Of a DNA stretch of 58,824 nt, positions 13,635-58,638 are shown in pieces (the first letter of the stretch is position 1; each line of letters starts with the position of its first letter). Origin of the DNA: Candidatus Kapaibacterium sp. Lineage in GTDB: Bacteria; Bacteroidota; Ignavibacteria; Palsa-1295. The translations under genes were made by a program, and so were the position numbers. The notes under the pieces are model-generated. The model was not told the DNA's origin. It made no database searches and was given only the letters and a program-made list of their open reading frames with translations. The stretch covers positions 1-58,824 of the forward strand of contig JADGPZ010000004.1 of the NCBI GenBank assembly GCA_017882165.1, given 5' to 3'.

Positions 13635-13640
13635 GGTTTG

Positions 13641-13692
13641 TAGGGACGTGCGGCGCACGTCCCTCGCATAGGACGTACACTGTACGTCCCTA
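13641..13692. repeat. twin GC-rich hairpins (GGGACGTGC family) in the secD-secF spacer
   Basis: GGGACGTGC-ggc-GCACGTCCC (13643-13663) and GGACGTAC-act-GTACGTCC (13671-13689). Related copies at 26409-26490. Confidence 0.85.
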
Positions 13693-13703
13693 CTAAGAGA
13701 GCT

Positions 13704-16558: not shown

Positions 16559-18205
16559 ATGAACCGACGACACTTCCTTCAGGGCGCCCTGGCAACGGGC
16601 GCGCTCTCACTTGCAAGTATAGACCGCGTGGCGCAGGCTTCCAGCCTGCGCGCGGCAAAAATGGCCGCGCCACGGTACGATAATCCTCTATCCAAACCCG
16701 GCAAGACCGAACAAGATCTCTGCGACACACTCATCGCCCACGCGAAATCGCTCGGCGCGACGTATTGCGACGTCCGGTTAGTGCGGATGCTCTCGCAATC
16801 GGTGACGGCGCGGAATAACATCATCACGGGACTCTCGGATAACGAGTCTTATGGTATGGGCATCCGCGTCATCAAGAACGGAACGTGGGGCTTTGCCGGT
16901 ACGCGCGAGGTGAACGACGCGAGTGGTAAGATGGCCGTCGCAGAGGCGATCACGATTGCCGAAAGCAACTCGAAGATTCAGGCAGTCCCGCTCGATCTCG
17001 CCCCCGTTGCTGCGGTTACTGCCGAGTGGACCACGCCAATCAAGAAGAACCCGTTCGAAGTCTCCTTCAAAGACCGCGCGCAGTTCCTGCTCGATATGCA
17101 CGCGCTTGGAGCAAGCGTCCAGCTCGGTGGCAACAAGCTCACGCTCAACTCTGATTTGCGTTGCGTCCGCGAGGAGAAGTATTTCGCTTCGAGCGAAGGC
17201 TCGAAGATCTGGCAGGAGGTTACGCGGATCGATCCCTCGACTTGGGCGACGGTTGCCGATCCCGTAAAAGGCGAGTTTGCGTCGCGTGCCCTATTCGTGC
17301 TGCCGCAAGGGCGAGGATTCGAATACGTTGAAGAATATCCCTACAAGGACGAAATTAAGGAAGCGGCACAAGAAGCACAGGAGAAGTTGACAGCGACGCC
17401 AGTTGAGCCGGGCAAATACGATCTCGTGCTTCATCCGACGCATCTCTGGCTCACGATCCACGAGTCGATCGGACACCCGACGGAGCTCGATCGCATCCTC
17501 GGGTACGAGGCGAACTTTGCCGGCACGAGCTTCCTGCCCACTGAAAAATGGAATGGCTACAGCTATGGGTCGTCCTACATGACGATCGTGGCAGACCGCA
17601 CACAGGAAGGTGCGCTTGCGACCGTTGGCTACGACGATGATGGCGTGCCAGCGCAGTCGTATCCGCTGATCGAAAAGGGAGAGCTCCTCGCGGTGCAGAC
17701 AACGCGCGAGCAAGCCAAGATGATCGGTGAGAAGACTTCGCGCGGCCAGAGCTACGCCGAAGGCTGGTGGAACACGCCGTTCCAGCGGATGCCGAACGTA
17801 AGCCTTCAGCCGAGCACGAAGCCGATGTCGCAAGAAGACATTATCAAGGATACCGGCAAAGGGATCTTCATCAAGGGCAATTCGAGTTACTCGATCGATC
17901 AGCAACGATACAATTTCCAGTTCACCGGACAAGTGGCTTATGCGATTCAGGATGGCAAGCTGGGCCACATGCTGCGCGACGTGGCCTATTACGGCAAGAC
18001 CACAAAGTTTTGGGATAACCTCGATGCCATTGGCGATCAGACGACATACATGATCGGTGGCGCGATGTACGATGGCAAAGGCGAGCCGATGCAATGCAAT
18101 CCTGTATCACATGGCTGCCCCGTAGCCCGATTCTCGAATCAGCGTGTCATCAACACACGGCAGCAATCGGCCAACAGCAAGAAAGGAATGCTGGACTATG
18201 AGTAA
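16559..18205 (+). CDS. tldD: TldD-family metallopeptidase with twin-arginine signal
   Basis: N-terminus MNRRHFLQGALATGALSLA (Tat motif). HESIGHPTELDR (HExxxH) metal site. TldD/PmbA fold motifs near the C-terminus. Confidence 0.9.
   Translation: MNRRHFLQGALATGALSLASIDRVAQASSLRAAKMAAPRYDNPLSKPGKTEQDLCDTLIAHAKSLGATYCDVRLVRMLSQSVTARNNIITGLSDNESYGMGIRVIKNGTWGFAGTREVNDASGKMAVAEAITIAESNSKIQAVPLDLAPVAAVTAEWTTPIKKNPFEVSFKDRAQFLLDMHALGASVQLGGNKLTLNSDLRCVREEKYFASSEGSKIWQEVTRIDPSTWATVADPVKGEFASRALFVLPQGRGFEYVEEYPYKDEIKEAAQEAQEKLTATPVEPGKYDLVLHPTHLWLTIHESIGHPTELDRILGYEANFAGTSFLPTEKWNGYSYGSSYMTIVADRTQEGALATVGYDDDGVPAQSYPLIEKGELLAVQTTREQAKMIGEKTSRGQSYAEGWWNTPFQRMPNVSLQPSTKPMSQEDIIKDTGKGIFIKGNSSYSIDQQRYNFQFTGQVAYAIQDGKLGHMLRDVAYYGKTTKFWDNLDAIGDQTTYMIGGAMYDGKGEPMQCNPVSHGCPVARFSNQRVINTRQQSANSKKGMLDYE
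16637..16684 (+). repeat. GC-rich palindromic element inserted in frame in tldD (copy 1)
   Basis: CGTGGCGCAGGCTTCCAGCCTGCG is identical over 24 nt to 44713-44736. Terminal inverted CGTGGCGC/GCGCCACG. Encodes VAQASSLRAAKMAAPR just after the Tat signal. Confidence 0.85.
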
Positions 18206-19550
18206 CCTTCTCGATCTCGACGAATTACAGGCGCTTGGCAAAAAGATTCTGAGCCACTCGAAGTCGGAGTGGGCCGAGGTTTCGCTCGGCAGCAGTCACG
18301 TTGCGAATCTCCGGTATGCGGCAAACACCGTGACGACGAGCGGTTCGTACACCAACACCTCGGTCGACATCACGGCCGTCAACGGCAAGCGAGCCGGGTC
18401 CGTCTCGACGAACGATCTTTCGGACGATGGGTTGCGCCGTGCGGTTGCGCGCGCCGAAGAAATCGCGGCTCTCGCGCCGGAGAACGAAGAGCTTGCGCTG
18501 CCCCTTGCGGTGAAGCAGGCCTATCCGAAATCGTCTGCATACGACGCTCGCTCGACCGATCTTTCGTGGGCGGCCGAACAGCGGTCGAAGATTGCTGGCA
18601 ACGCGATCAAAGAGGCGAACGCGCACAACCTCAAGACGGCCGGCTTCCTCGAGTCGGGCGTTCACCACAGCGTCTATCGCAATTCGAAGGGAATCATCGC
18701 GGCCGATAAGCACACGCGCACGACGTTCTCGACAACGATGCGCAACGCCGAAGGCAGGTCGAGCGGATGGAACAAGCGCGCCTCGCATGCAATCTCGCTA
18801 CTCGATGCGCAAAGCGCGATCCTGCGCGCAAGCGAAAAGTGTGTGGCATGGGAAAGCCCGAAGAGTATGGATGCGGGCGTCTATAAGGCGATCCTGGAAC
18901 CAAGCGCTGCCGCCGATCTCCTGCAGCACTTCGTCTGGGGGCTCGATGCGCGCGAGGCCGAGGAAGGCCGCAGTGCGTTCTCCCGACCCAATGGCACGAC
19001 GGCGCTTGGCTCGCAGGTTGTTGGCGAGAAAGTCCACATTTATAGCGATCCTTCGCATCCGCTTGTGCCGAGCGGTACGTATGGCGAGAGTGGTTTAGCC
19101 GTGCCATCAACGGAGTGGGTCGCGGGCGGCAAACTGATGAATTTGTCTCGCAGCAGATTTTGGGCTGGCAAATCTGGTAAGGATCCGCGACCCGGTCCGA
19201 CCAACCTCATCATGGATGGCGGCGGAATGCTGCCCGAAGATTTTCTCACCACGCTGCACGAGGGCTTGCTCATTACAAGCTTCTGGTATATCCGCGATCT
19301 CGACAACCAAACGCTGCTCAAGACCGGCCTGACGCGCGATGGACTCTATTGGGTCGAGGACGGCAAGATTCAGTACGGCGTCTCGAACTTCCGCTGGAAC
19401 GAGTCACCGATCACGGTACTGCAGAACGTCATCGACTTCTCGAAACCCGTCGTCACAGCTCCGCGCGATGGCTGGGACGGCATGCCAATGTACGTGCCGA
19501 CGATCTACGTGAGCGGGTTTAATTTTGCGTCGCAGTCGGATGCGGTGTAA
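18198..19550 (+). CDS. pmbA: PmbA/TldE-family metallopeptidase partner (no signal peptide)
   Basis: The ATG at 18198 overlaps the tldD stop (ATGAGTAA). TldD/PmbA-family sequence without HExxxH. Confidence 0.85.
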   Translation: MSNLLDLDELQALGKKILSHSKSEWAEVSLGSSHVANLRYAANTVTTSGSYTNTSVDITAVNGKRAGSVSTNDLSDDGLRRAVARAEEIAALAPENEELALPLAVKQAYPKSSAYDARSTDLSWAAEQRSKIAGNAIKEANAHNLKTAGFLESGVHHSVYRNSKGIIAADKHTRTTFSTTMRNAEGRSSGWNKRASHAISLLDAQSAILRASEKCVAWESPKSMDAGVYKAILEPSAAADLLQHFVWGLDAREAEEGRSAFSRPNGTTALGSQVVGEKVHIYSDPSHPLVPSGTYGESGLAVPSTEWVAGGKLMNLSRSRFWAGKSGKDPRPGPTNLIMDGGGMLPEDFLTTLHEGLLITSFWYIRDLDNQTLLKTGLTRDGLYWVEDGKIQYGVSNFRWNESPITVLQNVIDFSKPVVTAPRDGWDGMPMYVPTIYVSGFNFASQSDAV

Positions 19551-19555
19551 CCCCG

Positions 19556-19592
19556 AACCACGATTACGCGGATGATGCGGATTCGCAGGATT
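19556..19592. repeat. left arm of a perfect 37-bp inverted repeat (GGATnnnGC nonamer family)
   Basis: AACCACGATTACGCGGATGATGCGGATTCGCAGGATT. Its exact reverse complement is at 20139-20175. Confidence 0.95.
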
Positions 19593-19635
19593 TAACTTTT
19601 TATTGTTCGAGCATTACATGCAGGCTTAAAGAGAC

Positions 19636-20067
19636 ATGGATTTGACGGGATCCAAGAATCACATTCCTAACCTGGAAGATAGCGAACTGACCCACAGGAT
19701 TATTGGGTGTGCGATGCGGGTGCATACTAAGCTTGGGTGCGGTTTTCCGGAAGTGATCTACCAGAATTCGTTAGGAATCGAACTGAGAAAGGCCGGAATC
19801 GTCTTCGACCGAGAGTTCTCGATGCCGATCTACTACGACACCGAACTTGTCGGAACGCGCCGAGTCGATTTTCTTGTCGAGCAAAGGATAACTGTTGAAC
19901 TCAAGGCTCTGGCTGCGTTAGAGGATGTCCATCTTGCTCAAGCTAAGAATTACTTAGAGGCCTACAACCTTCGTGTCGGGCTTCTAATTAACTTTGGATC
20001 GAAGAGCTTAGAATTCAAGCGTTTGATAAATACCAAAGCACCCTCCCAAAAACATTTTGGAAGCTAA
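19636..20067 (+). CDS. GxxExxY protein (PD-(D/E)XK-like family)
   Basis: GCGFPEVIYQNSL (GxxExxY), then RVDFLVEQRITVELKA (D...E-x-K-like core) and HLAQAKNYL...LLINFG, typical of this small family. Confidence 0.85.
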   Translation: MDLTGSKNHIPNLEDSELTHRIIGCAMRVHTKLGCGFPEVIYQNSLGIELRKAGIVFDREFSMPIYYDTELVGTRRVDFLVEQRITVELKALAALEDVHLAQAKNYLEAYNLRVGLLINFGSKSLEFKRLINTKAPSQKHFGS

Positions 20068-20138
20068 GCCCAAGCCTGCGCTCTCCCGAAATGTCTACCG
20101 TTCTAGGTGCGAACCTCACGCAGAGCCCTTGAAAGTTT

Positions 20139-20175
20139 TAATCCTGCGAATCCGCATCATCCGCGTAATCGTGGT
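20139..20175. repeat. right arm of the perfect 37-bp inverted repeat
   Basis: AATCCTGCGAATCCGCATCATCCGCGTAATCGTGGTT, abutting the PBP1A stop codon (20176-20178). Confidence 0.95.
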
Positions 20176-22290
20176 TTAGTATTCGACCGGCTTCCGCATG
20201 GAATCAATATTCGTGATCTGCACTCGCCCGAGCGAGTCGCGCTTCGTGGTATCCACAGGCGCGACAGGCGCGCCGGGATAGCGGGTGTTGAAGTATTCGA
20301 TGCGGGGACGCAACGCATCGTAGGCATACTTCATAAACTTCCCCCAGATGGGTGCGGCGGCACGGCCCCCCTGTCCGTTCGAACTGTTGAACGTGATGCG
20401 CTTATCGTCGAAGCCAACCCAAACGCCAGCGGTGTATTGCGGTGTGTAGCCCATGAACCAGGCGTCGGCATAATTCTGCGTCGTGCCGGTTTTGCCAGCG
20501 GCAGGATAGCGGAAGTAGTTGAGCACGCGCGTCGCCGTGCCGCGCAGAATGACGCCCTGGAGCGCGGATGTGAGTTCACGGCAAATGCGTGGATCGAGCA
20601 CGCTTTCAAAGGTCGGTTTGCGCTCAAACAGGACTTTGCCACTTTTGTCCTCAACGCGGATGATCGAGTACGGCGCGGCCCGAACGCCTTCATTCGCGAA
20701 GACGGAGTAGGCGCTTGTTAGGTCGAGCGGACTCACTTCCGCTGTGCCCAGTGCGATTGAGGGATAGGGCGGAACATTCGACCGGATGCCAAGTCGCTTC
20801 GCCAGACTGACGACATCGGCTGCTGATGTCAACTCCTGAATGGCATGGACGGCTGAAAGATTGAGCGATTGCTCGATCGCATGCCGAATGCTGACAGTAC
20901 CGCCTTCGTACTCGCCGGCAAAATTATGCGGCGACCAGTTTTGACCGCCGCTCCGGATGGTGATCGGTTCGTTCGAAACACTTGACTCCGGAGTCGATCC
21001 GTGTTCGAACGCGGAAGCGTAGACGATCGGCTTGAACGAGCTTCCCGGCTGCCGCTGTATTTGCGTCGCGTGGTTCAAGCCGTAGCGAACCTCCTTATAG
21101 TTCGAGCTGCCGACCATCGCGACGATCTGTCCGGTCGATTGATCGATGGCGACAAGTCCCGCCTGCAACACAAGCTCTTCGTCTTTCACGCTATCGACAA
21201 AGTCCTTGTTTGCTTTGAGTGCCGCCGCAACCTTCGCGCGATCGGCATCCGACGATACTGCACGATACTCCGAGTTATTGCGAATTGCCTTTGCGAGGGC
21301 AGAGTCGAGCACGGCTTTGTGTTTCGCCCAATTCCAACCTTTGTTGACAACGTTCTTCTGATAGTCGCCGATGTGTTCGAGCACGGCGCGATTCGCTGCG
21401 CGCTGCATAGCAGCGTTGAGCGTGGTATAGACGATAAGCCCGTCGCGATAAATATCGTAGCCCGCCAATTCCGGCATCTTCTGCAATTGTTGCCGCACCA
21501 TCTCGGCAAAGTGCGGCGCGATGCCCTGGTAACCAACGTAGGGTTTGACTTTGAGCGTTTCCTTCTTGAGCCGCTCCGCATCCTGGCGGCGTGTGTAGCC
21601 CGCGTTCACTGTGTTTTCGATCACCGTGTTGCGCCGAGCGATGGCGAAGTCATAGTCGTCTTCGGGGTCGTAGTTCTCCGGGCCTTTGAGGATACCGACA
21701 AGATACGCGGACTGGGCGGGCGTGAGGCGGTTCACATCGCGGCCAAAGTAGGCCTGGCTTGCGGCCTCGATCCCATACGTGCCGCGACCGAAGTAGGTCA
21801 CGTTGAGATACATCTCGAGTATCTCATTCTTGGTGTGGTTGCGCTCGATCTCAACCGCCGTAATCGCCTCGCGAAGTTTGCGCAGGACTGATTTTTCCTG
21901 CGTCAGATAGAGATTCCGCGCAAGCTGCTGCGTGATCGTGCTCGCGCCCTGCTTTGCGTGTAGCGAAAGAATGTCGGTCCCGATCGCGCGGACGTTACCC
22001 CAGAGATCAATACCCCAGTGATGGAAGAAGTCGCGGTCTTCGGTCGCAAGCAGCGCCTTGATGAGGAACGGCGGGACGTTCCGGAGATGGATGTTCGTCC
22101 GGTTCTTGACGAAGTATTGATCGATCGGCTCGCCATCGGTCGAAATGATGCGGGTCGCGATCTCCGGGTGCGGACTCTCAAGCTGCGCCAAGCTCGGCAG
22201 CCCACGCTGGACATCCCACCAGAGGATTGCTAGAATTAGCAGACCGCCTCCGGCCAGGATCAGGGTTCGCGTTCGTTTGGTCAGCTTCAC
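20176..22290 (-). CDS. mrcA: penicillin-binding protein 1A (bifunctional transglycosylase/transpeptidase)
   Basis: GT51 motifs EDRDFFHHWGID and RKLRE; transpeptidase SSFKP, SNE and KTGTT. Confidence 0.95.
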   Translation of the reverse strand: MKLTKRTRTLILAGGGLLILAILWWDVQRGLPSLAQLESPHPEIATRIISTDGEPIDQYFVKNRTNIHLRNVPPFLIKALLATEDRDFFHHWGIDLWGNVRAIGTDILSLHAKQGASTITQQLARNLYLTQEKSVLRKLREAITAVEIERNHTKNEILEMYLNVTYFGRGTYGIEAASQAYFGRDVNRLTPAQSAYLVGILKGPENYDPEDDYDFAIARRNTVIENTVNAGYTRRQDAERLKKETLKVKPYVGYQGIAPHFAEMVRQQLQKMPELAGYDIYRDGLIVYTTLNAAMQRAANRAVLEHIGDYQKNVVNKGWNWAKHKAVLDSALAKAIRNNSEYRAVSSDADRAKVAAALKANKDFVDSVKDEELVLQAGLVAIDQSTGQIVAMVGSSNYKEVRYGLNHATQIQRQPGSSFKPIVYASAFEHGSTPESSVSNEPITIRSGGQNWSPHNFAGEYEGGTVSIRHAIEQSLNLSAVHAIQELTSAADVVSLAKRLGIRSNVPPYPSIALGTAEVSPLDLTSAYSVFANEGVRAAPYSIIRVEDKSGKVLFERKPTFESVLDPRICRELTSALQGVILRGTATRVLNYFRYPAAGKTGTTQNYADAWFMGYTPQYTAGVWVGFDDKRITFNSSNGQGGRAAAPIWGKFMKYAYDALRPRIEYFNTRYPGAPVAPVDTTKRDSLGRVQITNIDSMRKPVEY

Positions 22291-26408: not shown

Positions 26409-26490
26409 GTAGGGACGTGCTGCGCACGTCCTCTTTCGGAATATGAAAGACATTGCCAATTGGCAAAGGACGTGCGCAGCACCTCCCTAC
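26409..26490. repeat. inverted pair of 24-nt GGGACGTGC-family hairpins flanking a 14-nt perfect palindrome
   Basis: GTAGGGACGTGCTGCGCACGTCCT (26409-26432) and its reverse complement with 1 mismatch (26467-26490). TTGCCAATTGGCAA at 26453-26466. Confidence 0.9.
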
Positions 26491-26564: not shown

Positions 26565-27452
26565 ATGAGCCGAACCGGTCGTTTTCGCGTGCCTTGCTTC
26601 CTCCTCTTTGGAGGCCTCTTATTATTGGCTCCCACGCTCCGCGCGCAAACGGACCCGATGGCGAAGTGGAAGCCGAATGTGGGGAACAAATTCATCTGCG
26701 CCATATCGCATTCTAGCTCTTGCGGAGACTATCAGTGTGCAGGTATAGATACTGTCTCATTTCAAATCATTGACACCTCCTACAATTCTGATAATCAGCA
26801 CCAGGATGCTGTGTTCGCTGCAACTACCGTTTTGGCTCCGCACTATACCTTCTATTCGTGGGGCAGTGGATGGGGTTCCACTCCAGTGGTCCATCCCTAC
26901 AGCGATACAACTTTGATGGCATTGACGCAGCCGCACTTGCTCGAGACTTCATTTCAAGGATACACCGACGGTTATCATAATTGGTCAAGAATCCTATTCG
27001 ATCGAGATTCATCTCTAATGTTTGACGGACAAAGTTATACTGCCGCGTATGAATCGGCGTCTGGCACGCTGTTTTTGCCGACGATAGGATGGTTCTTTTC
27101 TCTTTCTGGGTATGGAGGAGTTTGTACAGGCTATTGCACGCATGAAACCTGGACGTTGTCTCTGATTGCGGCAAGTAAAACGAACTCAAGCGTTCAAGCG
27201 GACCCGCAAGCAAATTCTTACTTAATGTCTGGCGGTGGCTTGCTGCGACTTGTGAACGTTGAAGCCAACAACATAACCTTATCCGACTTACTTGCCCGCC
27301 CCATCCGCTCTTGGCAGATGCCAATCGATCCTGGCCCGCGCCAGATCACCCTCAACGTCGCGGATGTGCCGAGCGGAGTCTATTTCCTGAAGCTCACCGC
27401 GCCGGGCGTGGAGGAGGTGCGGAAGGTGTGCATCGAACCTGGATTACGCTGA
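26565..27452 (+). CDS. secreted hypothetical protein with probable T9SS C-terminal sorting domain
   Basis: Signal peptide (…LLLLAPTLRAQ). C-terminus ITLNVADVPSGVYFLKLTAPGVEEVRKV is CTD-like. Confidence 0.6.
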   Translation: MSRTGRFRVPCFLLFGGLLLLAPTLRAQTDPMAKWKPNVGNKFICAISHSSSCGDYQCAGIDTVSFQIIDTSYNSDNQHQDAVFAATTVLAPHYTFYSWGSGWGSTPVVHPYSDTTLMALTQPHLLETSFQGYTDGYHNWSRILFDRDSSLMFDGQSYTAAYESASGTLFLPTIGWFFSLSGYGGVCTGYCTHETWTLSLIAASKTNSSVQADPQANSYLMSGGGLLRLVNVEANNITLSDLLARPIRSWQMPIDPGPRQITLNVADVPSGVYFLKLTAPGVEEVRKVCIEPGLR

Positions 27453-27539
27453 TGGGCGTTCAAATTGCTTTGAAGCACATCTTTGTCAATCGAACAATCC
27501 AATCAGTAGAATCAGAAAATAATCAGCGTAATCCAGGTT

Positions 27540-32826: not shown

Positions 32827-33099
32827 CTATGCGTTTTCCTTCATTTCCTTAGCAATTTCATCCTCGATTGCTTCGCGCAAGGCCGGCCGGATGAAGATGC
32901 TTCCCAGACCATATTCTGAAAGACCGCGCGCCAGCGTCCGGATCTTTTTCGGGACCGTAGCGCGGCGGTTCAGTACGAGCAGTCGCTCCTCGCGCAGCAG
33001 GCAATAGCCGCCATCGAAATTGCCGTTCTCGAAGCGAAGCTTGATACCAAGCTCGGCGGCGAGCGCTTTGAGTTCTTCGAATAATTCTTCGTGGGTCAT
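32827..33099 (-). CDS. hypothetical protein (90 aa), probably co-transcribed with the MBL hydrolase
   Basis: Clean ORF 12 nt upstream of the MBL gene with plausible codon usage. No family recognised. Confidence 0.55.
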   Translation of the reverse strand: MTHEELFEELKALAAELGIKLRFENGNFDGGYCLLREERLLVLNRRATVPKKIRTLARGLSEYGLGSIFIRPALREAIEDEIAKEMKENA

Positions 33100-33102
33100 T
33101 AA

Positions 33103-33169
33103 GAGAACCTGGATTACATGGATTAGAGGGGATTACGCGGATTGATTTTAGGATTCATGTCTAATCCAG
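33103..33169. repeat. GGATTAC-family nonamer array
   Basis: GAGAACCTGGATTAC ATGGATTAG AGGGGATTAC GCGGATTGA… then one TAATCC. Shares its first 15 nt with the array at 33915. Confidence 0.8.
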
Positions 33170-33216
33170 TCTCTTTACAACATTTTGGACGAAGCGGTTC
33201 TTGCTTCATCCCGTTT

Positions 33217-34008
33217 CTATCGCTCACCCAAATAGCGGACCGGAAACGGCGTCTCGATAATTCCACCGTTGGTGAGTCCGACTTTGAATACCCGCGCACC
33301 CGGCACGGAGCTGATGGCTTCGACAAAATTGCCGTCCACAAAGTGCAGCGCGGCACCATCATCGGCGGCATAACCACCGGGCATTCCTTCACGAATGAAC
33401 TTGTGATATTGCGGCACTCGGTTCGGCTCGCTGTTGTAGTGCGGACAGTTACTGCCACGAATGAAACCGAGGCCATCATAGAGCGGGTCGAGCTCAAGGC
33501 TGAACGAATCGGTCACGCCGCACTCGAACCAGCACAGCGAACCGGCGCTCGTGCCACACATGACGGTCCCCTGCTCGTAGGCTTCGCGCAGGATTTGGTC
33601 TACGCCATGCACCCGCCAGATGGCGAACATATTCGCCGTGTTGCCGCCGCCAACGTAGATCACGTCCTGCGCAAGCAGGAACGCGCGAAGATCCTTCACC
33701 GATCGCGCAAACAGCTCTAAGTGGGTGGCTTCGCAGAGATCGGGGGAATATCGCGTGTGGAATGTTTCGATATAGGAGGGCGGATCGCCGCTGGCCGTCG
33801 GCAGGAAGCAGACATGCGGGCGCGACTTGCCAGTCAGGCCGAGAACGAACTTCGCTGAGAGCTTATTTTGCGGGTCGGAGAGAAATCCGTCGCCGCCGAA
33901 GGCAACAATATGACGAGAACCTGGATTACGCTGATTCAATTGGATTACGCGGATTGATTTGTAGGATTGATTCGATGAGAATTCGGATTGTATGGTCCAA
34001 CAAGACAT
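33217..34008 (-). CDS. S51 peptidase (peptidase E/cyanophycinase-like)
   Basis: VAFGGDGF…, VIYVGGGNTANM, CGTSAGSLCWFE (nucleophile Ser). The true start is uncertain (ATG 34008 or TTG 33939), because the ORF-track N-terminus is translated repeat sequence. Confidence 0.8.
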   Translation of the reverse strand: MSCWTIQSEFSSNQSYKSIRVIQLNQRNPGSRHIVAFGGDGFLSDPQNKLSAKFVLGLTGKSRPHVCFLPTASGDPPSYIETFHTRYSPDLCEATHLELFARSVKDLRAFLLAQDVIYVGGGNTANMFAIWRVHGVDQILREAYEQGTVMCGTSAGSLCWFECGVTDSFSLELDPLYDGLGFIRGSNCPHYNSEPNRVPQYHKFIREGMPGGYAADDGAALHFVDGNFVEAISSVPGARVFKVGLTNGGIIETPFPVRYLGER

Positions 34009-34068
34009 AATATGATAATCCGAAAAATCAATCCGCGGAATCCCCCTCAATCTGCGGAATCCAGGTTC
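33915..34068. repeat. about 150-nt imperfect hairpin built from GGATT(A/G)nnn units (GGATTAC family)
   Basis: Terminal GAACCTGGATT (33917-33927) pairs with AATCCAGGTTC (34058-34068). Internal GGATTACGC, GGATTGATT etc. are mirrored by AATCCGCGGAATCC…GCGGAATCC. Fills the S51/porX divergent region. Confidence 0.85.
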
Positions 34069-34070
34069 TT

Positions 34071-35690: not shown

Positions 35691-36008
35691 ATGATTCAGA
35701 GCCAGATTTGTAGCTTTGCGGACCAAATTGCGCAGCGGTTCGGACCGGAGAAGATCATTCTCTTCGGATCGCAGGCGAACGGCACCGCACGGAAGGACTC
35801 CGATGTAGATGTCCTTGTGGTGATGGACTACGAGGGATTGGCTCCGCATAAGGCAGCCGAAATTCTCTCGTCGATCAATCCAAACTTCTCTTGCGATTTG
35901 TTGGTCCGCAAGGCGTCGGAGATACAGGAGCGGCTTGCCCTGAACGATTACTTTTTCCGCGATCTCATTGCACACGGCCACATCCTTTATGAAGCCCATC
36001 ACGCTTGA
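35691..36008 (+). CDS. MNT-type nucleotidyltransferase (antitoxin of HEPN-MNT module)
   Basis: LFGSQANGTARKDSDVDVLVV (GSx10-SDxD minimal nucleotidyltransferase motif). Confidence 0.85.
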   Translation: MIQSQICSFADQIAQRFGPEKIILFGSQANGTARKDSDVDVLVVMDYEGLAPHKAAEILSSINPNFSCDLLVRKASEIQERLALNDYFFRDLIAHGHILYEAHHA

Positions 36009-36387
36009 GTGGCTTGAGAAAGGCGACGATGACTTTGCAACGATGACGCGAGAGTTCCGCGCGCGTTCGCGTCCGAACTATGCGGGAGTCTGCTTCCATG
36101 CCCAGCAGTGCGTGGAGAAGTTGCTCAAAGGTTTTTTGTTTGAGCATGACGTTGACTTCTATCGCACGCACGACCTCCGCCAACTCATTAATCTCGCTGC
36201 CTCGTTTGAACCCGAGTGGCCTCGCTCGCTCGAAGATGCATCCCGCCTCACCAACTACGCCGTTGAAGTGCGGTACCCGGGCAACATCGCCACCAAAGAG
36301 ATGGCCGCAAATGCAATTCGGATTTGTCGGAAGATTCGGGAAAGAATCCTCCGTTCGCTCGATCTGCCCAGCGAGCTTCCCCTGTGA
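35989..36387 (+). CDS. HEPN-domain protein (toxin of HEPN-MNT module)
   Basis: The ATG at 35989 overlaps the MNT gene by 20 nt. Helical HEPN pattern with …FYRTHDLRQL…. Confidence 0.8.
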   Translation: MKPITLEWLEKGDDDFATMTREFRARSRPNYAGVCFHAQQCVEKLLKGFLFEHDVDFYRTHDLRQLINLAASFEPEWPRSLEDASRLTNYAVEVRYPGNIATKEMAANAIRICRKIRERILRSLDLPSELPL

Positions 36388-36878
36388 GCAACCTGCACAC
36401 GTCTGCTTCCCCGGAGGAGACGATCCGGCTGGGGGAGGAATTCGGCCGGGAATTCGTGCGGTCTGGCGTGGTGGTGACGGTTCGCGGTGAGCTTGGCGCG
36501 GGGAAAACGCACTTTATCAAGGGCATCGCCCGCGCGCTTGGAATTGACGAGCGTGAGATCACTTCGCCGACTTTTACGCTGGCCAATGAGTTCGAGATCG
36601 CGCGGACCAATGTAATCGCGGGCAAGATGCCCGCGCCACGCGATTCGAATAGCGCGCCACGCGTTCTGTATCATCTGGATTGCTACCGGTTCGAGAAACC
36701 GGAGGAGTTGCTCGCGCTCGGCGTGGAGGATTATCTCTATCCGAAGCACGCGGCGACGATCATCGAGTGGCCGGAGCGGATCGAGGGGTTTCTTCCGGAG
36801 CATACCATCCAAGTCGAGATTGTCGTCGTTTCTGAGACAGAGAGGCAAATTAGAATAAGGATGAGGGATGAAGGATGA
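36384..36878 (+). CDS. tsaE: tRNA t6A biosynthesis ATPase TsaE (with internal repeat-derived insertion)
   Basis: The GTG at 36384 overlaps the HEPN stop. GELGAGKTHFIKGIARALG P-loop, SPTFTL, LYHLDCYRF. Confidence 0.85.
   Translation: MSNLHTSASPEETIRLGEEFGREFVRSGVVVTVRGELGAGKTHFIKGIARALGIDEREITSPTFTLANEFEIARTNVIAGKMPAPRDSNSAPRVLYHLDCYRFEKPEELLALGVEDYLYPKHAATIIEWPERIEGFLPEHTIQVEIVVVSETERQIRIRMRDEG
36616..36663 (+). repeat. partial copy (3' module) of the in-frame palindromic element, inside tsaE
   Basis: TCGCGGGCAAGATGCCCGCGCCACGCG is 24/27 identical to 44738-44764. CGCGCCACGCG is repeated 21 nt later. Encodes AGKMPAPRDSNSAPR (compare AAKMAAPR in tldD). Confidence 0.8.
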
Positions 36879-40602: not shown

Positions 40603-40628
40603 AGCGATTCACTCTCTCAGAAACCAAG

Positions 40629-40652
40629 AGGGCACGCCGGTTGGCGTGCCCT
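40629..40652. terminator. 10-bp GC-rich hairpin between convergent genes (bidirectional terminator candidate)
   Basis: AGGGCACGCC-ggtt-GGCGTGCCCT. Weak T tracts on both sides. Confidence 0.5.
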
Positions 40653-40708
40653 TCGACTATTGAATCTATAGATTCCATGGATTGGATGCTCGCATTCGAG
40701 CGAAATCG

Positions 40709-40987
40709 CTATCCTTGCATCGGCGGCGGGATCGGTTGGGGCTGTGGCATGGGGTTGCCCGGAACTGGATTGCCCGGAACTGGATTCGGCGCAGGATCCG
40801 GAAAGGTAGCGGGACGACCCGGCTGGTCTGGAGGAGGCGTGGGTGTGCTCGGCGGCGGAACGCTCGGCGGTGGAACGCTCGGCGGCGGAACGCTCGGTGG
40901 CGGAACGCTCGGTGGCGGAACCGGATGTTGTGTGGTTATCATAGGTCTTATAGGATTTATATGTCCTATTGAACATTCCATCAGCAA
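40709..40987 (-). CDS. possible proline-rich small protein (VPPPS x5); coding status uncertain
   Basis: The only frame of the tandem-repeat region that is convergent with the ompA-like gene across the hairpin. No signal peptide and no SD. Two other frames are also open. Confidence 0.3.
   Translation of the reverse strand: MLMECSIGHINPIRPMITTQHPVPPPSVPPPSVPPPSVPPPSVPPPSTPTPPPDQPGRPATFPDPAPNPVPGNPVPGNPMPQPQPIPPPMQG
40847..40921. repeat. 5 x 15-nt tandem repeat (GCTCGGCGGCGGAAC-like)
   Basis: Five near-identical 15-mers. An adjacent 2 x 15-nt repeat TTGCCCGGAACTGGA lies at 40755-40784. Confidence 0.95.
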
Positions 40988-41232
40988 GGCCCGTGCCGCA
41001 ATCTGAAAATCCCGTCACGAACTTTCGGCGAAAGAAGCGCTGTTGAGCAGGTGTTCATTTTGTGAGATCGCGGTGTTAATGAGGGGGTGATCGGCCGTGT
41101 TTGTTAGCGGCCGAAATCTCATGCGAAACTTCATGCCGCGCCAAAACGTACTCAAAAGGGAACATTAACCAAACTACCGAAGCGTCGTCACAATCGCGTC
41201 AGCGTCTCCGTTCAGCTAATCCATTCAAAGTT

Positions 41233-42995: not shown

Positions 42996-43727
42996 ATGGC
43001 TACATCACGAAAGGCAAGCGGAATTCCGGACGAACCTGCTCCAATGTTCGACGGCTTCTCCAAAGAGACATTCAAGTTTCTTCATGGGCTAAAGAAGAAC
43101 AACAACAAGGAGTGGTTCGAAGCGCACCGCGATGAGTACGAGCGTTCTCTCCGCGAACCATCGAAAGCGCTTGCCTACGCGATGGGCCAGTACTTCCGAT
43201 CGCATGACATGCCGGTCACCGGAAGTGCGAAGACCTCACTCTTCCGTATCAACCGCGACATCCGGTTCAGCAAGGATAAGTCTCCATACAAGACGCACAT
43301 TGGACTTTCCTTCCCACTCGAAGGCACGAAGAAGGAAGAGTGGTGCGGATATTACATCGGCTTCGAACCGGCGAAGAGTGGGAAAGGAATGCACGTTTAT
43401 GTCGGCGGCGGAGTCTACATGCCTATGCCGCCATATCTCAAACGCATCCGCGCCAAGATTGCGAATGACCACGCGGCGCTAAAGAAACTGCTCGCGGCGC
43501 CGGCGTTCAAGAAGCGTTTCCCAAAAGGTCTCGAAGGCGAATCGCTGAAGCGCATCCCCGTCGGTTACGCCGAGGACCATCCAGCGGCACAATGGCTGAA
43601 GCTGAAGAGCTTCATCTTCGGATTTGATCTTGCCGAGGGCGATCTTCTGAGCGAGGATTTGCCGGAGATACTGGGAAAGAACTTCAAGGTTGCGCTACCA
43701 GTGGTGATGTTTTTTGGAAGAGCATGA
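42996..43727 (+). CDS. DUF2461 (TIGR02453-like) family protein
   Basis: FLHGLKKNNNKEWFEAHRDEYE…RINRDIRFSKDKSPYKTH. The start may be 42996 or 43044. Confidence 0.8.
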   Translation: MATSRKASGIPDEPAPMFDGFSKETFKFLHGLKKNNNKEWFEAHRDEYERSLREPSKALAYAMGQYFRSHDMPVTGSAKTSLFRINRDIRFSKDKSPYKTHIGLSFPLEGTKKEEWCGYYIGFEPAKSGKGMHVYVGGGVYMPMPPYLKRIRAKIANDHAALKKLLAAPAFKKRFPKGLEGESLKRIPVGYAEDHPAAQWLKLKSFIFGFDLAEGDLLSEDLPEILGKNFKVALPVVMFFGRA

Positions 43728-44917
43728 TGGATACACTCGCCGCCAAGTACCGCTCGCACTTCCCGATCCTCGGAACCTCCTGCTACCTCATATCGAACTC
43801 GCTCGGCGCGATGCCGCGTGAAGTCGAGAGCGAGCTTCAGGAATACACGAAGATCTGGCAGACCGAGGGTGTCGAGTCATGGCATACGTGGTTTCCGTTC
43901 GTCGATGAAGTAAGTGGACTTGTTGCAAGCTTGATCGGAGCGGACGCGAAAGATGTCACGCTCATCCATAACCTCACCATCGGCTCCGCGCTGATTGCAT
44001 CGTGTCTCGATTTTAGTGGCAAGCGAAACAAGGTCGTCTATTCCGACTTACACTTTCCAACGATTTCCTATCTCTGGCAAGGCTGGCGAAAGTATGGTGC
44101 CATACCTCACGTGATCGAGAGCGATGGCATTTGGACCGAGACGGAGAAGTACATTGAAGCGATCGATGAGAACACAAAGCTTGTCGCGCTTTCGCATGTC
44201 TATTTCCGCTCGGGCGGATTGCAGGACATCAAACCGATCATCGAGCACGCACATAAGATGGGCGCGCTCGTCATGGTCGATTCGTATCAGGCGGCCGGTG
44301 TTGTTCCGATCGATGTGAAGGCACTCGACTGCGATATTCTCGCAACTGGCGTCCTCAAGTGGCTCTGTGGCGGACCCGGTGCAGCGTTCATGTATGTCCG
44401 GCCTGACCTGCAGGAGCAATTCCTGCCGGCGATTCGCGGCTGGCTGGGCGATAAAGAGCCATTCGAATTCCACATGCCGAGTGTGACGTTCGAGCACGGG
44501 ATGCATCGCTTCCTGACATCGAGCATTCAAGTGCCGTGCCTGCACACAGCTCGGCCAGCACTCCGGATGTTCAATGAAATCGGCATCGACGCGATCCGGG
44601 AGAAATCACTCCAACTCACTGACCGTTTGATTGCGAAAGCGGACGAGCATGGATTCGCTATCAATTCCCCGCGCGAGGCATCACGGCGCGGTGGCGCGCT
44701 AACAATCGATCCCGTGGCGCAGGCTTCCAGCCTGCGAGCGCGGGCAGGAAGCCCGCGCCACGCGACCAAAGACATTTGCGACGAGTTGATCCGACGCCGC
44801 TTCATCGTTGACTATCGCCCGCCGCTCGGCATCCGCATCGCACCACACTTTTACAACGCGCTGGACGAGATCGACGCGGTTATTCAAGAAATGCGGCGAA
44901 TCCTCGACGGAAATTAG
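43724..44917 (+). CDS. kynureninase-like class V PLP-dependent enzyme (carries an in-frame repeat insertion)
   Basis: Start overlaps the upstream stop (ATGATG). …NSLGAMP…, DSYQAAG, GVLKWLCGGPGAAFMYV (PLP-Lys region). Confidence 0.8.
   Translation: MMDTLAAKYRSHFPILGTSCYLISNSLGAMPREVESELQEYTKIWQTEGVESWHTWFPFVDEVSGLVASLIGADAKDVTLIHNLTIGSALIASCLDFSGKRNKVVYSDLHFPTISYLWQGWRKYGAIPHVIESDGIWTETEKYIEAIDENTKLVALSHVYFRSGGLQDIKPIIEHAHKMGALVMVDSYQAAGVVPIDVKALDCDILATGVLKWLCGGPGAAFMYVRPDLQEQFLPAIRGWLGDKEPFEFHMPSVTFEHGMHRFLTSSIQVPCLHTARPALRMFNEIGIDAIREKSLQLTDRLIAKADEHGFAINSPREASRRGGALTIDPVAQASSLRARAGSPRHATKDICDELIRRRFIVDYRPPLGIRIAPHFYNALDEIDAVIQEMRRILDGN
44713..44762 (+). repeat. GC-rich palindromic element inserted in frame (copy 2)
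   Basis: CGTGGCGCAGGCTTCCAGCCTGCGAGCGCGGGCAGGAAGCCCGCGCCACG, same orientation and same frame as the tldD copy. Encodes VAQASSLRARAGSPRH. Confidence 0.85.
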
Positions 44918-57900: not shown

Positions 57901-58253
57901 TCTGGTAACGCTGTTGCGCCCGAGCCAAGTGCGAGATTGAACACGCCGTGCGCGACCGGCACCTTGTAGGTGTCGCGCCAGACTTCTTTGACTCCATACA
58001 CATCACTGTAAATGCGCATGGTGATGGAGTACTCGCCATCGGTGATGGCGGTTCCGTCGGTGTTTGCCAGTACGCCCTGGTAACTGATGGTGCGCGGCGC
58101 AGTGGATGAGCGATCATCCACCGTGGATGAGCGATCATCCGCTGTCGCAGGGACCGCTTGCGCTCTGAGCGATTGTACCGCCCACGGTGCGCTCGAACCC
58201 AATACAACCATGGCCGCTATCATTAGCGCCACCGATTTGATGCAGTTTTTCAT
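54996..58253 (-). CDS. large secreted tail-fibre-like/adhesin protein (paralogous N-module, Gly/Thr-rich beta-helix-like body, internal duplication)
   Basis: The ATG at 58253 gives signal peptide MKNCIKSVALMIAAMVVLGSS…RAQA. The N-module aligns with the 46509-49166 product. SLGSLSHRWMDLYL is a tail-fibre-like motif. The protein ends …GWKLLFLF. Confidence 0.85.
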   Translation of the reverse strand: MKNCIKSVALMIAAMVVLGSSAPWAVQSLRAQAVPATADDRSSTVDDRSSTAPRTISYQGVLANTDGTAITDGEYSITMRIYSDVYGVKEVWRDTYKVPVAHGVFNLALGSGATALPEASAMDQPLWLSMQVGDQPELKPFSAMTASAYALNVADKSISANKISADYVKSITLNGQTVSGNGKDVNIQTGDGVVASLDPATNTILLKGGNASLQGAKGGEVQGNTTISGSLTVTGSTFLGSSSAGTYVYGVLTASKDILPVSDNTQSLGSLSHRWMDLYLGGGTLKMIDGSTMTQLKNTGGTVTLSVTSGGVTTDPLTMTTDGVTTTGTQTTTGPITSGNSIVIDGTATPRFINSDAGLDVYCLTAGTGVAGGAISILAGTGGPGGGMAGGNLTLTSGAQGSGGGSTDGDIILKTGGASGTTWMTFNHATGPDMNSHQIHSVTDPSSAQDAATKNYVDNTDAVAVAVSVILAPNGSTRNVIQPTGAAVVPLKIKGYSGQSAHLQDWENSSTTVLAAIDQNGAATTAGLDAGSGTITTTGTTHGANLTLSPLTSSVGITIGSGSTGNDITGNSWHVAHSGAITSTGLDAGSGLIMTSGWIITTGTGGITSAGLLTTNNGLTVTSGTVTLPAASIADAALSSNVALLNGGQTFSAGLTINSGLTLGTQLSVANGGTGATTLTGVLHGNGTSAISASNVNLTSDVTGTLPVAYGGTGATTLTLNTVLFGNGTSAVQAVPVNASATNMFLTQSSSGAPAWSALVAGDIPTGSGNYIQNQSAGAQGPASYWITGSGQVGTTLTAGGNINTTGGALQTAGTTRIDNSGNASLGLVNSFGLQTNSIMRIGANGEGTFTTLTANVHTDATGVYTFDASGAHDFLVIETKDVALDADVLILPTATTGRIVAIKFTGTAATLAVTNPYGAKIEGSAPPFTISPTDQHLITLMCDGTDWWIVGSGQVGTTLTVAGNINTTGGALQTAGATRIDNSGNASLGTITAGNVLTQKSSNLTIVNAHGLYTLDGTSNLYELVGAPGTNEGVALPTGSAGQIIHILNSSGSTQTINGVARANGVGVAYGQFSTAGWKLLFLF
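58102..58140. repeat. two tandem copies (21-nt period) of palindrome GTGGATGAGCGATCATCC(AC) inside the adhesin CDS
   Basis: 58102-58121 and 58123-58140. Translated on the minus strand as DDRSSTVDDRSST, right after the signal peptide. Confidence 0.95.
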
Positions 58254-58551
58254 AAGTAAATTAAAGAAGAAAGTAGCAGCCGCGTCACTCCATAAGGACA
58301 AAAAACCAAATTATAGGTGGGGAACAGCCCAACCCGGTGGCGACGGACTTTCAAATATACTACAAAAAACTGGGTGTCCAATGAATTTTCCATAAGAAGG
58401 GCCGCCGTGACCCGGATAGGCCATGTGGATTAGCGATCGGCCATCTCCGCCCGGAGTGCTATGAGATTTCGCCCCTGAGGGCCGGGTAGTGATTTCGTGT
58501 GTAGTTTTGTGAGGAATCACTTGGAGCTATGATGTTGAATCACCATGCTCA

Positions 58552-58570
58552 GTGGATGAGCGATCATCCA
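58552..58570. repeat. intergenic copy of GTGGATGAGCGATCATCCA
   Basis: Exact 19-mer. A degenerate copy TGGATTAGCGATCGGCCA lies near 58425-58442. Confidence 0.9.
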
Positions 58571-58611
58571 TCCCGATCATTAATGAGAAATATGAAAAGA
58601 CTGGGCTTCGT

Positions 58612-58638
58612 GTGGATGAGCGATCATCCACTTTTGAC
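58612..58638 (+). terminator. copy of GTGGATGAGCGATCATCCAC followed by TTTTGA (terminator-like)
   Basis: 7-8-bp stem TGGATGA-gcg(a)-TCATCCA plus a T tract on the plus strand. Confidence 0.4.

Follow-up and report, generated by a model that had tools for sequence, protein, structure and literature searches.

The stretch of DNA analyzed here, called the window throughout, covers 58,824 nucleotides of contig JADGPZ010000004.1 from a Candidatus Kapaibacterium genome, a genus of the Fibrobacteres-Chlorobi-Bacteroidetes (FCB) group in the phylum Bacteroidota. Its tldD gene, which codes for a TldD/PmbA-family metallopeptidase with a putative twin-arginine translocation (Tat) signal, contains the palindrome CGTGGCGCAGGCTTCCAGCCTGCG-CGCGGCAAAAATGGCCGCGCCACG, and copies of its modules occur in two other genes of the window, a class-V aminotransferase/kynureninase-like gene and tsaE. 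The palindrome occupies positions 16627-16674, that is, 10 nucleotides upstream of the interval 16637-16684 given in a preliminary description of this DNA, and its 48 nucleotides make up 16 codons, so that the frame is kept, as that description had held. The encoded peptide, VAQASSLRAAKMAAPR, forms residues 24-39 of TldD, between the h-region of the Tat signal and domain 1 of the mature protein (Table 1). Residues 1-18 scored 20.7 bits against the Pfam model TAT_signal, just below its cut-off of 22.7 bits, and the twin-arginine motif RRHFLQ is conserved in the orthologues.

The tldD palindrome consists of two 24-nucleotide modules which together form a head-out doublet similar to a REPIN, i.e., a pair of inverted repetitive extragenic palindromes (REPs). 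The first 24 nucleotides (16627-16650) were identical at all 24 positions to 44713-44736 in the kynureninase-like gene, a claimed identity that thus holds (0 matches were obtained in 100 dinucleotide-preserving shuffles). There the module is followed, after a 2-nucleotide spacer, by an inverted partner, and both build a near-perfect palindrome of 50 nucleotides (44713-44762), a REPIN hairpin. The pattern of the 3′ module, GCGGGC-N5-GCCCGCGCCACG, matched exactly at 44740-44762 and at 36618-36640 inside the tsaE open reading frame (ORF), which confirmed the reported recurrence in tsaE, where the complete module spans 36617-36640; when up to three mismatches were allowed, five matches were found in the window against 0.29 expected. 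A relaxed module scan of the window likewise returned five modules at three sites and no others. Inverted doublets are present at two of these sites (tldD and the kynureninase-like gene), and tsaE carries a singleton beside an old remnant.

All modules follow a common plan: a C, the head GTGG, a GC-rich stem of 8 bp, a TCC-type loop and the complementary stem. The five modules of the window begin with C-GTGG, and in the orthologous loops described below the head is GTAG or GTGG. With a length of 24 nucleotides, stems of 7-8 bp and loops of 3-5 nucleotides, they are the short imperfect palindromes expected of a REP. As single-stranded DNA, the tldD copy folded into a terminal stem plus two hairpins (-20.7 kcal/mol, z score -3.1), in agreement with the terminal inverted repeats and two internal hairpins noticed before, and the kynureninase-like copy folded into one long hairpin (-25.1 kcal/mol, z score -5.3), both of them better than shuffled sequences. 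The 24-mer spans exactly 8 codons and, by direct reading, holds a stop codon in none of the six frames, and the reading frame of the REP-bearing genes is therefore kept.

The exact 24-mer was also found in many other genomes. In a 596-Gb sequence collection, where by our own arithmetic about 0.004 occurrences are expected by chance, it was present in at least 124 copies at no fewer than 117 loci; these stem from at least 32 species-level assemblies, whose labels span eight phyla or more. Labels among the matches listed were Chloroflexota, Armatimonadota, Planctomycetota, Verrucomicrobiota, Acidobacteriota, Ca. Zipacnadia, Thioalkalivibrio and Kapaibacterium, some labels of metagenome-assembled genomes (MAGs) being clearly unreliable. 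At a Schlesneria locus (L218), doublets of the same REP lie on both flanks of an ORF that reaches the 80-bit cut-off of the NCBIfam model REP_Tyr_transpos for REP-associated tyrosine transposases (RAYTs), and at an Acidobacteriota locus (L226/L245) such doublets likewise lie on both flanks of an ORF scoring 68.6 bits, below that cut-off. The exact family also flanks RAYT-like genes at two further loci (L246, L247), and nearly all of 80 RAYT-relative loci carry REPs of the form GT[AG]G-stem-TCC-stem on both flanks. Because the same family flanks RAYT genes in other genomes, we conclude that the element is very probably a RAYT-associated REP of the GTAG superfamily in its GTGG head variant, arranged as a doublet (REPIN) in tldD and in the kynureninase-like gene. 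The exact 24-nucleotide REP is shared by RAYTs with a mutual identity of only 28%, whereas a RAYT 63% identical to that of L245 is flanked by a different one, GTAG-CACAGAC-ttca-GTCTGTG; REP identity does not track RAYT similarity. Both REP types occur near one RAYT in L246 and in L247.

Outside the window, three intragenic cases of the 24-mer were each confirmed with Pfam. It lies in frame within the IleRS of a Verrucomicrobiota MAG (L121), in a tandem ABC ATPase from an Armatimonadota MAG (L145), where it is part of the inter-domain linker, and in the CoaE of a Kapaibacterium MAG (L187), where it is read as SQAGSLRHA. As the same 24-mer is translated in different frames and orientations, a conserved peptide motif was rejected, in line with the earlier view that the repeat is a palindrome at the DNA level. 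A different REP doublet was found in the inter-domain linker of CoaBC (L244). In a 3.58-Mb Kapabacteria contig (L325, 8684-9944), coaBC was called as two overlapping ORFs (Flavoprotein, and Flavoprotein plus DFP) with the break around the linker where L244 has its doublet; judging from the ORF calls, a frameshift located at a REP site may lie behind this break.

Some of the results from the collection are to be read with care. As a measure of the intragenic fraction of the 24-mer in other phyla, REP sites fell within stop-free spans of at least 300 codons less often than random sites did (0.43 vs. 0.74), a comparison made unusable by spurious ORFs in GC-rich DNA, and a degenerate scan of genome contigs with CGTGGCGCNGGCNNNNNGCCNGCG returned mostly single chance matches in GC-rich genomes and was not used. 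At Chloroflexus MAG loci (L120, L129, L130 and others) the 24-mer forms part of a repeat unit that is conserved and spans no fewer than 110 nucleotides, gctgcgttaggtcgggctgcaagtgctccc-24mer-tggaggcatcctcgccaccgcc..., and the same unit is present in a contig binned as Ignavibacteriaceae (L209), which is probably mis-binned. The sequences of several RAYT loci that carry the labels Bifidobacteriaceae or Klebsiella (L275, L286) resemble those of Verrucomicrobiota.

These features match what has been published on other REPs. GTAG REPs and REPINs are mobilised by RAYTs (Nunvar, 2010; Bertels and Rainey, 2011, PMC3116915; Di Nocera et al., 2013, PMC3733652). The GTAG- and CGTC-tagged superfamilies were defined by Di Nocera et al. 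(2013), who found REPs inside genes of several species, with the largest numbers in Opitutus terrae and Rickettsia conorii; intragenic GTAG or CGTC copies are documented in O. terrae, Thioalkalivibrio, Thauera and others, and most O. terrae GTAG-20 elements have a GTGG head. O. terrae peptides such as HGRDARAT would back-translate to GTGG, an 8-bp stem, TCC and an 8-bp stem. The element of the window shares with the GTAG REP/REPIN class the imperfect palindrome of 23-24 nucleotides, the GT[A/G]G head, the 8-bp GC-rich stems, the loop of 3-5 nucleotides, the inverted doublets, the location next to RAYTs in other genomes, and in-frame copies of 7-8 residues (single) or about 16 residues (doublet) in unrelated proteins. 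It differs from the published GTAG REPs in its host family, Kapaibacteriaceae, in that three of three copies are intragenic, and in the re-use of loops that hold older REP remnants. Since intragenic in-frame REPs were already published in several phyla (PMC3733652), the finding is less unusual than first supposed, and the present case is a further example and not a new behaviour. No report on REPs of Kapaibacteriaceae turned up in literature searches, none of which was aimed at the group by name, and no paper containing the core sequence was retrieved by full text.

Other classes of repeats fitted less well. Miniature inverted-repeat transposable elements, or MITEs, represent deletion derivatives of DDE-transposase insertion sequences that retain terminal inverted repeats, e.g., Correia, Nezha and ERIC. 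Like them, the element is small and non-autonomous with an inverted-repeat structure, and MITEs are occasionally intragenic and in frame; unlike them, it measures only 24-50 nucleotides, is tied to HUH/Y1 enzymes (RAYTs) and not to DDE transposases, and has no target-site duplication, as no direct repeat was found at the flanks of the three copies (GACCG and GTACG, GATCC and CGACC, GTAAT and CGATT). Sites of clustered regularly interspaced short palindromic repeats (CRISPR) or integron attC sites were rejected, as neither an array nor R/L core sites are present; the lack of a T-run spoke against an intragenic intrinsic terminator, which was likewise rejected. A search of Rfam gave nothing at gathering thresholds, with only a sub-threshold PinT match located outside the element.

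Several observations weigh against the assignment to RAYT-associated REPs. DNA alignment with the closest orthologues revealed no clean empty site at any of the three positions, where the ancestral sequence appears to have been overwritten rather than cleanly extended. REPs are by definition mostly extragenic, while all three copies of the GTGG family in the window lie inside conserved ORFs. No RAYT gene was found in the window, the best match falling in an esterase-like ORF, so that mobilisation in this host is something that we infer. In addition, three other Kapaibacteriaceae loci (64 kb) contained one single REP and one doublet, both intergenic; the REP load therefore differs between lineages.

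The nearest homologues of all three host proteins belong to Candidatus Kapabacteria/Kapaibacterium MAGs, and distant homologues lack the loops. The preliminary description had allowed that the same peptides might turn up in orthologues from distant taxa as ancestral sequence. They were absent from the 360 homologues retrieved, save for the window's own TldD and TsaE, and in this sense the expected lineage specificity stands, but the expected insertions do not, as no clean gain of 16 residues was seen. In TldD, orthologues carry about 11 residues (IAAREAARLRR) at the REP position and the net gain is about 5 residues; relatives read IDKIAA-REAARLRR-FDTPL and the window IDR-VAQASSLRAAKMAAPR-YDNPL, within a variable Tat c-region/linker. 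Net gains amount to about 4-7 residues in TldD and the kynureninase-like protein and to about 4-14 in TsaE. The kynureninase-like protein has a hypervariable loop, TIDP-(8-25 residues)-TTKE, in all Kapabacteria homologues, which is missing from homologues of 45-56% identity; it comprises 17 residues in the window, 13 in a 93%-identical relative (P0121) and 10 in P0122. The corresponding turn of TsaE has 5-6 residues (NGKP) in most homologues (see Table 1 for the window and T. maritima).

AlphaFold models placed the REP-encoded residues in coil with a predicted local distance difference test (pLDDT) score of about 60, compared to more than 90 in the protein cores. In TsaE the segment is modelled between strands 66-70 and 93-98, and in the kynureninase-like protein residues 331-347 scored low, with values below 50 for residues 337-342. 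All three in-frame sites are thus predicted to lie in variable low-confidence loops or linkers (the Tat c-region of TldD, the beta-hairpin of TsaE and the loop of the kynureninase-like protein), which agrees with the original observation of in-frame copies in three unrelated housekeeping genes.

Fresh and independent insertions at all three sites were not borne out for tsaE and the kynureninase-like gene, whose sites already held REPs in related lineages. The orthologous tsaE loops of three loci (L241, L242, L243) contain REPs of the same architecture on the same strand (Table 1), which have the GCTTCCAGCC core of the 24-mer in common and differ in their stage of decay. The distal sequence GCGCCACGCGTTCT (36654-36667) is common to the window and to the tsaE loop of GCA_030706745.1; therefore, the fresh perfect module at 36617-36640 adjoins an older remnant, which at the peptide level (APR[AV]L-YHLDC) is also present in P0243, P0258 and P0268. 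As a tentative reading, a GCTTCCAGCC-type REP may have been present in the hairpin loop of TsaE throughout the divergence of Kapaibacteriaceae, and the loop may have been re-invaded. The kynureninase-like loop of the 93%-identical relative (L237) carries GTAG-CGCGACCG-TCCT-CGGTTGCG, which matches the right module of the window in position and orientation, and that of L244 carries an unrelated palindrome, CCCTCTCCC-TCT-GGGAGAGGG, which encodes PSPSGRGQGEG. Because orthologous loops hold other, decayed REPs, comparison of the sequences identifies the tsaE and kynureninase-like loops as old REP landing sites, used repeatedly.

Table 1. Palindromic modules, their host genes and related repeats (positions refer to the window).
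Feature	Position	Strand	Remarks
REP module 1, tldD	16627..16650	+	C-GTGG-CGCAGGCT-tcc-AGCCTGCG, 8-bp stem perfect
REP module 2, tldD	16651..16674	-	inverted, diverged (4 mismatches to family); C-GTGG-CGCGGCCA-ttt-TTGCCGCG
Host gene, TldD/PmbA-family metallopeptidase with putative Tat signal	16559..18205	+	PmbA_TldD domains from residue 70
REP module, kynureninase-like gene	44713..44736	+	exact copy of tldD module 1
Inverted partner module, kynureninase-like gene	44739..44762	-	C-GTGG-CGCGGGC-ttcct-GCCCGCG
Host gene, class-V aminotransferase/kynureninase-like	43724..44917	+	REP-encoded loop = residues 331-347 (VAQASSLRARAGSPRHA), low pLDDT
Single REP module, tsaE	36617..36640	-	C-GTGG-CGCGGGCA-tct-TGCCCGCG; encodes AGKMPAPR
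Older REP head remnant, tsaE	36654..36667	-	GCGCCACGCGTTCT
Host gene tsaE	36324..36878	+	about 22 residues between two beta-strands; 3 in T. maritima TsaE
tsaE loop REP, L241			CGTAG-GTCGGTGC-TTCC-AGCCCGAC
tsaE loop REP, L242			CGTGG-AGCAGTGC-TTCC-AGCCTGAC
tsaE loop REP, L243			CATGG-GGCAGTGC-TTCC-AGCCTGCC
Second REP family, doublet	13640..13693	.	intergenic, between two long co-directional ORFs
Second REP family, doublet	26409..26490	.	intergenic, 36-nucleotide spacer; DNA fold -34.8 kcal/mol, z score -10.3

This history bears on how the copies arrived. Ectopic gene conversion, or template switching, with other REP copies as donors may have replaced loop sequence that was in part old REP, which would leave a patch instead of an insertion; we regard this as unlikely, and it rivals the mode of arrival only, not the identity of the element. 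The replacement of ancestral sequence seen against the closest orthologues fits gene conversion or insertion plus deletion as well as simple transposition. The missing empty sites and the net change of only +4 to +7 residues in the tldD and kynureninase-like products agree with gene conversion, and so do the presence of a REP in the tsaE loop long before the fresh module and the fact that L237 has a different GTAG REP at the position orthologous to the right module in the kynureninase-like gene (head codon TAC vs. CAC). The lack of a target-site duplication at any copy points in the same direction; however, it does not discriminate gene conversion from HUH/Y1 transposition, which leaves no such duplication (IS200/IS605 family). 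Moreover, the tldD site of the orthologue L238 holds no recognisable REP, so that the tldD copy, at least, needs a de novo arrival.

It is rather improbable that the hairpin or the peptide has been retained as useful, be it as an mRNA hairpin that slows translation after the Tat signal or through VAQA as a signal-peptidase AxA site. The RNA folds are strong in two copies (-31 kcal/mol in tldD and -45 kcal/mol in the kynureninase-like gene), but in tsaE the RNA folds no better than shuffles (z score -0.6). The REP gives A-Q-A where TldD orthologues have (I/L)-A-A, and it is plausible from the sequence that the element supplies TldD with an AxA cleavage site (RVAQA followed by SS); orthologues, however, function without the element. 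Intragenic tsaE REPs persist across Kapaibacteriaceae lineages, yet the older copies degenerate and cease to be palindromic, and the same module is found in unrelated proteins, frames and orientations. As a separate observation, the right module of tldD supplies an in-frame ATG (M35, 16659-16661) downstream of the Tat signal, which could in principle yield a TldD isoform without the signal.

The precedent invoked in the preliminary description, the Rickettsia palindromic elements (RPEs), was partly retained. RPEs are palindromic repeats found in frame in unrelated genes (Ogata et al., 2000; reviewed in PMC10969869), and the element shares this behaviour, down to its fold-compatible positions in unrelated housekeeping and metabolic genes; in addition, RPE-4 and RPE-6 are themselves short REPs of the CGTC-tagged superfamily (Di Nocera et al., 2013, PMC3733652). 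The closer class is nevertheless the GTAG-type REP/REPIN and not RPEs specifically, and membership in the RPE families is hardly to be entertained: the RPEs that were reported first, in R. conorii, measure about 150 bp and the peptide that they encode is conserved (PMC10969869), whereas the element described here measures 24-50 nucleotides in 24-nucleotide modules, has a GTGG/GTAG head, encodes a peptide that varies with frame and orientation, has RAYT-flanking relatives and resides in Bacteroidota. Chance similarity or an assembly artefact, for which nothing speaks beyond the GC-rich, low-complexity look of the repeat, is practically negligible in view of the shuffles, of the copy number of the 24-mer, and of in-frame copies within otherwise conserved genes in independent assemblies.

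We therefore retain RAYT-associated REPs as the explanation of the three sites. The modules would be non-autonomous REPs, and a RAYT (HUH/Y1 enzyme), presumably encoded elsewhere in the genome, would cut them and transfer them in the form of single-stranded DNA hairpins. Copies would land in, or be copied into, coding sequence and would survive only in tolerant loops as extra residues, here the Tat c-region/linker of TldD, the turn of a beta-hairpin in TsaE and, in the kynureninase-like protein, a loop at the surface. At the last two sites REPs would decay and then be renewed. The effect of the segments on the proteins is probably neutral.

A second REP family of the window, GTAG-GGACGTGC-nnn-GCACGTCC, forms inverted doublets in two intergenic gaps (Table 1), in a window that is about 90% coding by greedy ORF tiling; the host genome therefore also holds classical REPINs. 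The ORFs flanking the first doublet are presumably secD- and secF-like. A third repeat family, rich in GAACCTGGATTACGCGGAT, is present at 19543-19600 / 20132-20189, 27435-27453 and 33098-34069. A PDDEXK_3 nuclease-family gene (19636-20067) is enclosed by its inverted arms, which are 58 nucleotides long and 84% complementary, and a PDDEXK_3 gene is located at the same place, after pmbA, in L238; similar arms flank a Peptidase_S51 gene (33217-34050, minus strand). Five copies of the palindrome (G)TGGATGA-GCGA-TCATCCA, which may be another REP-like family, are clustered within about 530 nucleotides at the end of the window (58097-58630). At 46585-47280, five tandem units of about 135 nucleotides (60-71% identity) in the minus-strand ORF 46509-49166 correspond to Kelch-repeat blades of an 885-residue protein, and at 40821-40921 about seven units of a 15-nucleotide tandem repeat, GGCGGNGGAACGCTC, are covered solely by the minus-strand ORF 40617-41018, which has no Pfam match. 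Immediately upstream of tsaE (35691-36387) lies a gene pair encoding a nucleotidyltransferase (NTP_transf_2) and a HEPN protein, which looks like a toxin-antitoxin module.

These results add the Kapaibacteriaceae, a lineage of Bacteroidota, to the organisms in which REPs are written into proteins, and the orthologues show that such sites may last through long divergence and be occupied more than once. If so, REPs would contribute, to a small but real extent, to the variation of loops and linkers in essential enzymes. The peptides VAQASSLR, QAGSLRH and AGWKPAPR represent a recognisable REP-encoded signature, by which annotators and those who predict structures may identify loops derived from mobile DNA. 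More tentatively, REP modules may be a recurrent source of loops and linkers in essential Kapaibacteriaceae proteins, and REPINs or REPIN-RAYT pairs may cross phyla or be captured by unrelated RAYTs. The identity of the 24-mer across phyla could help to decide whether the inheritance of REPIN-RAYT systems is strictly vertical.

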